From a virus (taxonomy: Duplodnaviria > Heunggongvirae > Uroviricota > Caudoviricetes), in the IMG/VR virus record IMGVR_UViG_2617270956_000008, positions 1 to 48,241 of that record: a stretch of 48,241 nt of DNA. One strand, given 5' to 3'. A model generated the notes under the pieces. It saw only the letters and a list, made by a program, of their open reading frames with translations, was not told the DNA's origin and did not search any database. A program made the position numbers and the translations under genes. Of the stretch, positions 32,320 through 44,799 are shown one piece after another. Numbering within the stretch: position 1 is the first letter of the stretch; each line of letters starts with the position of its first letter.

Positions 32320-33711
32320 TCACTTAATAGGATTTGGTTTTATGTCGTCAAGCCAGTCGTTATCACCTCTTAGCTTGGCTACTCGTCCTTCAACATTAGT
32401 TAACGGTTTATAAGCAGAGTATTTGCCTATAGCCCTAGCAGAATGCTCTCCAGCAACACGATAATTTTGGAAGTCCAACTCAAGTCCATGCTGCTCCGCT
32501 CTCATTCGAATATAACCACGAAGCATGTTTTCTCTAAATCGAAACCAAGATGGACGATTCCCTAAAGCAGGGATGATGATGCATCCAAATGTCGGTTTCT
32601 TCAATGCATTGAACTTTCGCTCAAACGTGGATTTATCTAAAGGTGTTACATCAAGCGATTTGCAAATTTTAACGTACGATTCTGATATATGAGTCTTATG
32701 TCTGGTCAAATCAGCCATATCGGACATAGCCCAAAGAATATGCTTATATGACTCATCACGTCCCTCTGTTGCATCCGTGTAACTTTGCCTTAAAGTTTCC
32801 GAGACTGAATCAATTGCATCATTTAACCCTTTAATGAAAAGGTTGTAATCAACAGAGCTGTATTCACGTATTGAGCTTTGACATGTTAAAAGGATTTTTT
32901 CACAAATAAGATGAATGTAGTTCGGGAACCCGTCACTAAGACCCGCAATTTTATAGCGGACAGAATCATCGACAGTCAGGCCAAACTCATCGAAAGCATT
33001 ATCAATTATTTGAAAACGACCATTCCATGGTAAACTATCGAGATGTACCTGATGTATTTGTCGCTCACTTGATTTATGCCCTCCGATTAAAGTAACGAGA
33101 GAATCACCAATCCCCGTAAAAATTAATTTTACTTCACACGCCTGATCACCAAGTTGTTTAATGAGTGATCCAAACTTTTGTCGTTCTTCATCAGAGTCAA
33201 TTTGGTCAAACTCATCGATAACTATATAAGGAATCTTTGAGTGAACTTTAGTTAAAAATTGCAACGCCCGAACGGCTGCAGAAACTGAGTCAATTTTCAG
33301 TTCTGGATAATTATATTTTTGATTTTGACCAGCATTGATACCACCAATTCCAGCCACATTTAAGCCAAAGCTCCATCCCTGTGTATCGATTTTCTTATCC
33401 TGAGGTGTGCCTCGCAAAATAATGTCATTCATGACACTTGAAAAAGTGGATTCTTTCTCGCAGCCAACCAAAATAGGTTCAGCATCTTCCTGCAGCTTAA
33501 AAGCAACAGTTTGCGCTAAGGATGTCTTTCCTACTCCGCGATCACCATAAATGAAAGCATGCCGACCTGTAGCATAAAGCGCCAATTCGAGATCGGTTAC
33601 ATGTTTTTCACGTCCAAATAACAGTTCCATAGAAACAACTGGACCCGTTGGTCGCAAAACTTTATGCAGTTTATGCATAAAGTCTCGCAAAGAAAGACCT
33701 CCACAGAGCAT
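32320..33711 (-). CDS. P-loop NTPase (AAA/ORC-like ATPase) of unknown function, 463 aa, moron
   Basis: ATG with AGGAG SD; Walker A GDRGVGKTS and Walker B YIVIDEFD; LFGRE motif before Walker A; AT-rich (sampled blocks about 35-42 percent GC); between Q-like gene and holin. Confidence 0.7.
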   Translation of the reverse strand: MLCGGLSLRDFMHKLHKVLRPTGPVVSMELLFGREKHVTDLELALYATGRHAFIYGDRGVGKTSLAQTVAFKLQEDAEPILVGCEKESTFSSVMNDIILRGTPQDKKIDTQGWSFGLNVAGIGGINAGQNQKYNYPELKIDSVSAAVRALQFLTKVHSKIPYIVIDEFDQIDSDEERQKFGSLIKQLGDQACEVKLIFTGIGDSLVTLIGGHKSSERQIHQVHLDSLPWNGRFQIIDNAFDEFGLTVDDSVRYKIAGLSDGFPNYIHLICEKILLTCQSSIREYSSVDYNLFIKGLNDAIDSVSETLRQSYTDATEGRDESYKHILWAMSDMADLTRHKTHISESYVKICKSLDVTPLDKSTFERKFNALKKPTFGCIIIPALGNRPSWFRFRENMLRGYIRMRAEQHGLELDFQNYRVAGEHSARAIGKYSAYKPLTNVEGRVAKLRGDNDWLDDIKPNPIK

Positions 33712-36163: not shown

Positions 36164-36193
36164 AAAATAAAAACAAAAACCCGCCGAAGCGGG
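36164..36193 (-). terminator. rho-independent terminator downstream of hokD
   Basis: Minus strand: CCCGCTTCGGCGGG hairpin (UUCG loop) followed by TTTTTGTTTTTATTTT. Confidence 0.65.
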
Positions 36194-36263
36194 TTAAGTG
36201 CGGGTGCGTTGAGGATGCCTGACACATCAGAGGTGGCGAGGGATTTCTCCCCCGCCTGGTCTC

Positions 36264-36419
36264 TTACTCCTCAGGTTCGTAAGCTGTGAAGACAGCGACC
36301 TCCGTCTGGCCGGTTCGGATTCGTACCTCGCAGAGGTCTTTCCTCGTTACCAGTGCCGTCACTATGACGGTTAAACAGATGACGATCAGGGCGATTAACA
36401 TCGCCTTTTGCTGCTTCAT
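36264..36419 (-). CDS. hokD: Hok/Gef-family type I toxin (HokD/RelF-like), 51 aa
   Basis: MKQQKAMLIALIVICLTVIVTALVTRKDLCEVRIRTGQTEVAVFTAYEPEE matches HokD/RelF as recalled; AAGGAG SD 9 nt upstream of the internal ATG. Confidence 0.85.
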   Translation of the reverse strand: MKQQKAMLIALIVICLTVIVTALVTRKDLCEVRIRTGQTEVAVFTAYEPEE

Positions 36420-36630
36420 AGCCTGCTTCTCCTTGCCTTTCGGCACGTAAGAGGCTAACCTACGTTTGTGAAGCATAGATTGGGCCTCAGATTAATGTTA
36501 AACGTCTTGCAGGACGCGTAATGTTAACTGGGGCTTTTCTCTATCTGCCGTTGGTGTTCATGCCCGAGGCAGATAGCCTCAAGCACCCGCAGCAATTCTA
36601 CTTAACTCACGTCACCTCGCCAATATAAAA

Positions 36631-36720
36631 TCAATCAGAGAGGTGATTCATAAGAACGATAACAAGACAATAAATTGCCATTACTGCCGCAATAGCCAGC
36701 GCACATTTCAGAACCAGCAC
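36631..36720 (-). CDS. candidate small hydrophobic peptide (29 aa)
   Basis: GTG start 5 nt after GGAGG; peptide MLVLKCALAIAAVMAIYCLVIVLMNHLSD; lies in the hokD upstream leader. Unverified. Confidence 0.25.
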   Translation of the reverse strand: MLVLKCALAIAAVMAIYCLVIVLMNHLSD

Positions 36721-36962
36721 GATGACCTCCCATATTTGACGTACACGCGCATGGTTCAATATGTAGCAACCTATTTCTTGCTTCAATATAAAATCAGGTA
36801 TTGTTGTATAACTATTTAACTAACTCCCTATCCCCACATCTCAGGCGCTCAACGTCTGTGTGCGGGGCGTTTTTTTAATACCTCACATCCAGTGGCAAAT
36901 CGAATACACCACCAGCGCCACCGCTATTGCAATTCCTACCGTTGTGAATGCTTCAGGCCAGG

Positions 36963-37478
36963 TCATCGCAAAACATCCTCCGCGCTTATCAGTTCGTTCC
37001 GCTTCAGGTAGTCCATCGCCTTCTCCGGTAATTTGCAGTCTGGATTAGCTTTTTTCAGTTGACTGACCAGTCGTTTAACCCACATTGTTAATTCGCCAAC
37101 TTGGTTACTGGATGCTAATGGATTGTCGGCTTTACCCAGAATGACAGCACAGCAGGCCTCTTTGAGAACCCAATCAACAGCATCTTTCCATACTCCTGTT
37201 TCGACTGGTGGATTCTCACGCTTTACCTGTTCATAAAAGCGCACGGCTTTAACCAGTCCTTCTGATGTCACCGGGACTGGCGGGCCGATGAATAAGGCCT
37301 GAATTTCATAGTTCGGCCTGTCGTTACAATCCTCTTTTGTCGGTACATATTTCCAGTCACCAGCCCACGGCTTCCCCTGAAAGTCTGTAACGTCTTTTTT
37401 CACGTAGCGATATCGCCATGCAACTGGTTTTGCCTGCCCTGCCGTTTCATGCCCTTCCTGATAATTAATCTCGCTCAT
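36963..37478 (-). CDS. hypothetical phage protein (171 aa)
   Basis: ORF coupled to the upstream small ORF by an ATGA overlap. Confidence 0.5.
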   Translation of the reverse strand: MSEINYQEGHETAGQAKPVAWRYRYVKKDVTDFQGKPWAGDWKYVPTKEDCNDRPNYEIQALFIGPPVPVTSEGLVKAVRFYEQVKRENPPVETGVWKDAVDWVLKEACCAVILGKADNPLASSNQVGELTMWVKRLVSQLKKANPDCKLPEKAMDYLKRNELISAEDVLR

Positions 37479-44267: not shown

Positions 44268-44325
44268 TTTCTGGTGACGTTTGGCGGTATCAGTTCTACT
44301 CCGTGACTGCTCTGCCGCCCTTTTT
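44268..44325 (+). ncRNA. dicF: DicF small regulatory RNA
   Basis: TTTCTGGTGACGTTTGGCGGTATCAGTTCTACTCCGTGACTGCTCTGCCGCCCTTTTT nearly matches DicF as recalled; GGCGG/CCGCC terminator stem plus T-run. Confidence 0.8.
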
Positions 44326-44799
44326 AAAGTGAATTTTGTGATGCGGTGAATGCGGCTAAGCGCACGCGGAACAGTTAAAACCAAAAACAGTGTTATGGGT
44401 GGATTCTCTGTATCCGGCGTTAATTGTTAACTGGTTAACGTCACCTGGAGGCACCAGGCACCGCATCAACAAAGTTCACTTCGGTGATGAAAGGTAGAGA
44501 AAATGTTGAATGTAGCTATTGAAAACCAGAACGGGTGGAATTATAGTGCACCAGCACCTCATAAAACGGGTGCCGGGCGTGGAAACCCGAAATCATTCAC
44601 GGCGCATAACCGCGCTCAGGCGGTTTTTTTATGCGTTAAGCACAGCCACATTCGCATTATGGTGGGGCGTGCAGGGCAGCCGCAAGGCTGGCCGGGTTCC
44701 GTGATGACCGGTATTTCCACCCCTGTACGTCTCACCACCCTTATGGTCGTGGAAAACCTCGGTGGTGAGTTAATCAAATTCATCGCGGAGGCTGCCATC

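Follow-up and report, generated by a model that had tools for sequence, protein, structure and literature searches.

The 48,241-nucleotide (nt) stretch of viral DNA analyzed here (IMG/VR record IMGVR_UViG_2617270956_000008, positions 1 to 48,241; hereafter called the window) is a lambdoid prophage of Escherichia coli. In its nin region, the window very probably contains two adjacent, separately promoted units on the minus strand: an intact hok/mok/sok toxin-antitoxin (TA) cassette at 36623–36168, and an independent 29-codon gene for a membrane peptide at 36786–36631. A segment of 801 bases comprising this locus and its flanks was 100% identical to the chromosomes of THO-006 and FDAARGOS_1259/1260, and 99.9% identical to that of SMS-3-5. 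In those matching records, the locus is flanked by replication genes on one side and by a Q-type antiterminator and lysis genes on the other, which is a nin-like region, and the genes around it are all read from the minus strand, which is the orientation of the early-right operon. The sole feature annotated beneath the locus in the identical RefSeq records is “hokD: type I toxin-antitoxin system toxin HokD.”

Judged by its sequence, the first unit is a complete hok/mok/sok type I TA cassette, a system which has already been described as hokW-sokW. The original prediction, made from the DNA letters, had proposed that hok forms an autonomous hok/sok-type locus here, and each defining sequence element of such a locus was indeed present. 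Window positions 36608–36192 are 94.7% identical to hokW-mokW-sokW of phage 933W and the Sakai prophage Sp5, and transfer of the 933W annotation places mokW at 36476–36264, hokW at 36419–36264, and sokW on the plus strand at 36468–36538. The two loci share the sok promoter, Sok RNA, mok, hok, the tac and fbi elements, and a lambdoid prophage setting. They differ in the toxin, as the C-terminus of HokW in 933W is a few residues off and the window protein is HokD instead. They also differ in their surroundings: the 933W cassette occupies another part of the phage genome, lies directly 3′ of an open reading frame (ORF) of 27 amino acids (aa), has a different −35 region, and is without the ∼270-bp module that holds the 29-codon ORF. 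The hokW-sokW pair is a working type I TA system with a partial requirement for RNase III and Hfq (Takada et al. 2021, PMC8621323), for which both the toxicity of Hok and its neutralization by Sok have been demonstrated (PMC8621323). The better-known hok/sok (parB) locus of plasmid R1 has the same architecture and predicted mechanism (a PF01848 Hok protein, mok coupling, a Sok antisense RNA, and tac-fbi closure), but the similarity of its protein is distant, with a reported identity of 44% between HokW and R1 Hok (PMC8621323).

The transcript of the cassette could be delimited at both ends. A promoter scan identified a sigma-70-like hok promoter on the minus strand (36595–36623), with a −35 element TTGGCG (36623–36618), a 17-nt spacer, and a −10 element TAGAAT (36600–36595), which ends 7 nt 5′ of position 1 of the Rfam model RF01794. 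Viral-contig copies were collected from IMG/VR with a pattern anchored on non-coding flanks (the Shine-Dalgarno (SD) region of the 29-codon ORF and the hok −35) and leaving ±10 nt free between them; TTGGCG-17-TAGAAT was kept in 114 of the 119 copies. RF01794 (“sok”) matched at full length from 36588 to 36414 on the hok-sense strand, with 113.1 bits (gathering score, 59). Together with the 933W identity and the predicted fold, this match suggests a full-length hok mRNA of ∼417 nt (36172–36588, minus strand), consisting of the leader, mok/hok, the 3′ fbi element and the terminator. The 417-nt RNA was predicted to fold at −172 kcal/mol (z −6.2) with its 5′ end closed onto its 3′ end. Its intrinsic terminator (36168–36195, minus strand) was found in a terminator scan as a 7-bp stem with five GC pairs followed by a T-run.

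The inverted repeats noted in the original prediction, CTATCTGCC (36541–36549) and GGCAGATAG (36568–36576), are real and beyond chance; they form a 5′ hairpin in the tac region (36541–36576, minus strand) in the minimum free energy (MFE) fold and correspond to the first helix of the RF01794 alignment. The long-range closure involves the first 12 nt of the mRNA, GGGUGCUUGAGG (36588–36577), which pair in both the MFE and the centroid folds with the fbi element CCUCAACGCACCC (36202–36214, minus strand; 100% complementary) just 5′ of the terminator; the same tac-fbi pairing was also recovered as a 9/9 inverted repeat. Although RF01794 is named “sok antitoxin,” it fits the hok-sense strand and its alignment stops at the hok AUG; what it models is therefore the leader of hok mRNA and not Sok RNA. 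Strand calls drawn from this model can therefore mislead. Weaker Rfam matches near hok (isrK at 24.9 bits, rsmX, ceN48, and a plus-strand sok match at 17 bits) were below threshold and were disregarded. Among 5426 complete E. coli genomes, the hok leader of this locus had matches in 5422, at 15,044 places.

The remaining elements of a hok/sok system concern the translation of hok and its antisense control. A mok-like frame of 70 codons (36264–36476, minus strand) appears in the ORF list; it contains hok in frame and corresponds base for base to the annotated mokW of 933W. The original prediction had recommended searching the plus strand opposite the hok 5′ region for a sok-like promoter and an antisense RNA, and both are predicted there, at the position of 933W sokW. 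The candidate sok promoter (36433–36461, plus strand) has a −35 element TTGCCT, a 17-nt spacer and a −10 element TAACCT, and the same bases occur in 933W; the −10 bases are those changed in the “promoter-less” primer YO-421 of Takada et al. (PMC8621323). The predicted Sok antisense RNA, positioned from the sokW misc_RNA of 933W, would be ∼71 nt long (36468–36538, plus strand) and complementary to the mok translation-initiation region. Folding of the Sok region alone (73 nt; −26.9 kcal/mol, z −4.4) left the 5′ tail unpaired and placed behind it a long terminator hairpin with a U-run.

The toxin itself (hok coding sequence, 36264–36419, minus strand) is a 51-aa protein which matches PF01848 with an E value of 1.2e-23 and 82.9 bits (cut-off, 22 bits) and phrog_251, a “MokW-like” family, with an E value of 2.8e-33. 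The match to HokD/RelF proposed originally was borne out by tblastn, which found 51/51 aa identity with K-12 HokD. In the Qin prophage of K-12, HokD is encoded in the relBE-hokD (relBEF) operon, where relB and relE lie directly upstream and are co-transcribed with it. No such arrangement exists in the window: the ORF list contains no RelB- or RelE-sized ORF between hok and the next gene upstream, as originally stated, and K-12 RelB and RelE used as tblastn queries had no match in the whole 48-kb window. The two loci encode the identical Hok protein and have the same downstream neighbors (rem and DUF968/ydfU). However, in K-12, relB-relE occupy the place of the hok promoter, tac, the mok start, the Sok target and the sok promoter, all of which the window keeps. 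Homology to Qin (98%) begins at window position 36433 and extends through rem. Because it starts only 14 nt ahead of the hok ATG, the K-12 relBE-hokD locus is, by this comparison, a truncated derivative which retains only the hok ribosome-binding site and coding sequence, and the window represents the intact form. Thus, the missing relBE genes are no anomaly; the lack of a RelB- or RelE-sized ORF upstream is normal for intact hok loci. The cassette alters no current understanding but displays the intact form of a locus seen truncated in K-12, and it warns against taking a “hokD” annotation as a sign of a relBEF operon. As a separate observation, codon 47 of hok (Tyr, TAC) is followed by G (36278–36281, minus strand), giving UACG in the mRNA; this is the context in which a 2026 preprint reports A-to-I editing by TadA (Tyr to Cys) in the mRNAs of hokC, hokD and hokE.

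The first unit is the orthologue of hokW-mokW-sokW, and it most likely acts as described for hok/sok. Base pairing between the two ends of full-length hok mRNA, tac at the 5′ end and fbi at the 3′ end, would keep it inert, and Sok RNA, made from its own plus-strand promoter, would pair with the mok initiation region and thereby block translation of mok and hence of the coupled hok. Upon loss of Sok, Hok would be made and would damage the inner membrane. We speculate that such a loss could come with prophage induction, since transcription of the early-right operon would cross the cassette in the hok direction, head-on to sok. In the published system, Sok vanishes and Hok is produced after mitomycin C in a RecA-dependent manner, and phage release is aided (PMC8621323). 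In this respect the prophage version differs from that of R1, which is a plasmid where the locus has a maintenance role (PMC8621323). More generally, hok is enriched in prophages, where hok loci are common (preprint 10.1101/2025.08.07.668861).

One set of published results weighs against a working cassette. The chromosomal hok loci of strains K-12, C and ECOR24 gave no post-segregational killing (summarized in 10.1101/2025.08.07.668861), and activity of the window cassette is therefore not guaranteed. These results, together with the K-12 hokD that is without its regulatory region, would fit a window locus that is an inactive relic, like several of the K-12 chromosomal hok loci, and not a working TA system. 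We nevertheless consider a relic unlikely. The regulatory elements are all intact and nearly identical to those of the experimentally active hokW-sokW, the locus is not interrupted by an insertion sequence element, and its Hok sequence is that of HokD, which is toxic when expressed (10.1101/2025.08.07.668861).

The second unit is a 29-codon ORF, MLVLKCALAIAAVMAIYCLVIVLMNHLSD (36631–36720, minus strand), identified from the ORF list and by allele comparison. It runs from a GTG at 36720 to a TGA stop at 36633–36631, is preceded at a distance of 5 nt by the SD sequence GGAGG (36730–36726), and encodes a predicted single-pass membrane peptide of 29 aa with ∼20 hydrophobic residues in a row. The original prediction had described a strong-SD, all-hydrophobic ORF within the hok leader. 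The ORF exists and its product is almost entirely hydrophobic, but its location was misjudged, as the stop codon lies 7 nt 5′ of the hok −35, and both the hok promoter and the conserved mRNA start (36588) are downstream. Delimited by its promoter, by the Rfam model and by the leftmost point of 933W homology, the hok transcript does not include the ORF, which is therefore a separate upstream gene. A putative sigma-70-type promoter of its own (36758–36786, minus strand), consisting of a −35 element TTGAAG, a 17-nt spacer and a −10 element CATATT, was recognized by its position, which is held across divergent alleles. In all untruncated alleles this position is fixed and the hexamers are conserved, while the spacer sequence varies; CATATT was present in 119/119 copies, and TTGAAT or TTGAAG in 105/119.

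The pattern of variation argues that the peptide is what is conserved. All 119 copies had an intact 29-codon frame without indels, and the spacing between the anchors was invariant. Among the 32 distinct alleles in this sample, variation was greatest at third positions of codons (variable columns: 14/8/22 of 28 for positions one, two and three), and a minimum spanning tree of these alleles required 49 changes that are synonymous and 35 that are nonsynonymous, against an expected synonymous share of 25% (p 1.7e-10). In a first set of ten alleles, taken from genomes, plasmids and metagenomes, pN/pS was 0.1–0.3 when divergent pairs were compared. The in-frame sequence 5′ of the GTG diverges freely between alleles, which favors GTG as the start codon, and the most divergent allele, which is from a plasmid, begins with ATG instead and retains the SD spacing. 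Antisense ORFs such as those called in phage HannyBb were rejected as candidates; other alleles have stop codons in those frames. The peptide is, by these measures, under purifying selection, and the ORF is a real, selected and separately promoted small gene, with expression and a membrane location predicted for its product.

Several points weigh against this conclusion. The promoter of the ORF is of moderate predicted strength. With either form of the ORF (29 aa and 51 aa), searches of Pfam, NCBIfam, PHROG and PADLOC yielded nothing but noise below threshold, and a literature search by peptide string found no mention. No homologue was found beyond Escherichia and Shigella, either in a collection of 15 billion proteins or with a degenerate codon pattern run on one genome per species. 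All entries found in the protein collection belonged to these two genera and were labeled either “hypothetical” or “membrane protein” (two cluster members of ∼500 aa were unrelated artefacts), and the codon pattern gave four matches, all in Escherichia/Shigella-like DNA. The alleles are closely related, most being 85–90% identical, so that their conservation reflects in part recent common ancestry; the ratio of synonymous to nonsynonymous changes is not explained in this way. The viral-contig sample was chosen by its conserved flanking anchors, and decayed copies may be under-sampled.

Some of these points could also be taken to mean that the ORF is an untranslated chance frame within DNA that is conserved but non-coding, such as a region that regulates the hok promoter. 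Such a reading would fit the absence of a protein family match, the fair likeness of the alleles, and the fact that the NCBI pipeline PGAP leaves the ORF unannotated in every one of the ∼95 RefSeq records among the matches listed. Conserved non-coding DNA is difficult to reconcile with variation concentrated at third codon positions, with the synonymous excess, with a frame that is never disrupted, with replacement of GTG by ATG at preserved SD spacing, and with free divergence of the sequence 5′ of the start. We regard a chance ORF as very improbable.

The 29-codon gene is widespread. A 163-nt query comprising its promoter and ORF had a DNA match in 1903 of the 5426 complete E. coli genomes (∼35%), with 2,149 matches in total, and the module is also present in the sequenced phages mEp460, HannyBb, Evi and Tritos. 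In three settings, the ORF is intact where hok is not: the A38 chromosome, the S. flexneri chromosome, and the pINV virulence plasmid of Shigella and enteroinvasive E. coli (EIEC), whose allele is 100% identical in 134 virulence plasmids. In pINV (allele L006, 2440–2710) the intact, ATG-initiated ORF lies ∼290 nt upstream of icsP (2904) and adjoins a decayed hok promoter and leader, in which TTGGCG-18-TAGAAT is still recognizable. In E. coli M10 (L003) and A38 (L005), the module forms the edge of a prophage remnant at the same chromosomal site, beside a major facilitator superfamily transporter gene; in M10 the module is followed by hokD, and in A38 an oppositely oriented DUF1971 gene replaces the hok cassette and the 29-codon ORF is intact. 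No copy was found at the K-12 hokD locus or in the K-12 prophage DLP12 (ylcH, ylcJ, ylcG and the region upstream of ompT included); the remaining K-12 prophages were not checked.

The close linkage to hok raises the question of whether the ORF matters for its own product or for its neighbor. No terminator was predicted between the two, and the ORF is almost always found directly 5′ of the hok promoter or its remnant; for these reasons, a transcript of the 29-codon ORF would probably read on into hok. The ORF and its promoter could then act mainly in cis, either through 5′-extended hok transcripts or through occlusion of the hok/sok promoters, so that transcription, and possibly translation, across the hok promoter tunes the ratio of toxin to antitoxin and the peptide is secondary. 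The constant 7-nt distance between the ORF stop and the hok −35, seen in essentially all copies, is consistent with such a role. However, selection acts on the amino-acid sequence, as the 49 synonymous and 35 nonsynonymous changes and the absence of any disrupted copy indicate, and the module is missing from many hok cassettes, among them the functional hokW-sokW of 933W. Moreover, the ORF stays intact where hok has been lost (pINV and the S. flexneri and A38 chromosomes), and a function of the peptide itself is therefore favored over a purely cis role; that the ORF acts mainly in cis is unlikely.

We also considered whether the peptide is a toxin. The original prediction had suggested a second toxin-like peptide, and nothing was found to favor this other than the size and hydrophobicity of the peptide. 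The known small toxins TisB, ZorO, ShoB and IbsC and the non-toxic proteins KdpF, MgtS and YohP all resemble the 29-aa ORF in length (∼20–35 aa), and all consist, like it, of a single hydrophobic helix with few flanking charged residues. The ORF has no detectable sequence similarity to any family. It has the small hydrophobic peptide that type I TA systems require, but it lacks the conserved antisense or divergent small RNA (sRNA) gene; in contrast to small type I toxins, it has no conserved antisense or divergent sRNA promoter, and no structured, long 5′ untranslated region (UTR) is evident.

The most explicit form of a second type I system would have as its antitoxin a plus-strand antisense RNA that starts at a promoter-like site, TTAACT-18-TAAAAT (36602–36631, plus strand), crosses the ORF, and ends at a hairpin at 36832–36878. 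There are grounds for it: in size, hydrophobicity and single helix the peptide recalls TisB, ZorO, ShoB and Ibs, the site, the sole good candidate for an antisense promoter in the window, matches at 9/12 positions in the promoter scan and has the top position weight matrix score, and the plus-strand hairpin, ∼240 nt downstream, resembles a terminator with a U7 run. But the critical A of the antisense −10 is polymorphic (TAAAAT in 65 copies versus TGAAAT or TGCAAT in 54) while the ORF, its SD and its sense promoter stay intact in all copies, and the site is missing altogether from the pINV and A38 alleles. If this promoter served an essential antitoxin, its loss should not be tolerated in copies that keep the “toxin” and its signals, and an antisense antitoxin is therefore disfavored. 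Furthermore, the hairpin is confined to alleles of the window/L015 type and does not co-occur with a good promoter in either L003 or L015, and a cis-antisense RNA was therefore rejected as a conserved feature.

RNAalifold with nine alleles predicted helices around the ORF with essentially no covariation, and gave no such support for a conserved structure sequestering its ribosome-binding site (covariation term −0.37, one compensatory pair). The short 5′ UTR and exposed, strong SD differ from those of known type I toxin mRNAs. Pairing in trans between the ORF initiation region and either Sok or the plus-strand hairpin RNA was rejected, as complementarity did not exceed background in shuffled controls. 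A divergent sRNA was likewise rejected, since its promoter (TTGATT-16-TATAGT) occurs only in the L003, L005, L006 and L008 alleles and not in the window. Overall, we judge a second type I TA system to be improbable. The plus-strand hairpin with U7 (36832–36878) resembles an intrinsic terminator, lies between the upstream operon and the 29-codon gene with no plus-strand gene nearby, and might halt antisense transcription or read-through from sok.

A different connection to the toxin is that the peptide is a partner of Hok, whether as a second membrane-active toxin, a holin-like peptide, or a modulator of Hok insertion or activity. It would then be co-transcribed with hok, either from the ORF promoter or, on induction, from the phage early-right operon. 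We put little weight on this possibility. If true, it would add a protein component to ∼14% of prophage hok/sok cassettes, a figure which relates 2,149 ORF matches to 15,044 hok-leader matches from two separate searches, not paired per copy. Instead, the 29-codon gene most likely encodes a small accessory (“moron”) inner-membrane protein of the prophage that is expressed in the lysogen. The modest new value of the locus lies in this gene, which is clearly under purifying selection, has been missed by standard annotation, and occurs in about one third of complete E. coli genomes as well as in several temperate phages and the Shigella virulence plasmid. Should it be wholly absent from K-12, this would account for its being missed in small-protein surveys. 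For work on small proteins it offers an inexpensive, clearly delimited object, and it bears on whether there is a reason for the association of small membrane peptides with type I toxins.

Further upstream in the window (36883–36966, minus strand) lies another very small hydrophobic ORF. It would encode 27 aa, MTWPEAFTTVGIAIAVALVVYSICHWM, and its start overlaps the stop of the upstream 171-aa gene (ATGA). A homologue is found at the same position in phage 933W, directly 5′ of the hokW promoter (L011, 1398–1481); the two differ by ∼8 nonsynonymous and 2 synonymous codon changes. Downstream of the locus, a 463-aa “ATP-binding protein” gene (32320–33711, minus strand; annotation of the identical THO-006 record) lies between the Q-like antiterminator and the holin, a slot in which lambdoid phages often hold accessory or defense cargo. 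Finally, in the leftward early region (44269–44742, plus strand), Rfam models for DicF (72 bits), IsrK (68 bits) and the C4 antisense RNA (82 bits) match in a row, all above threshold.

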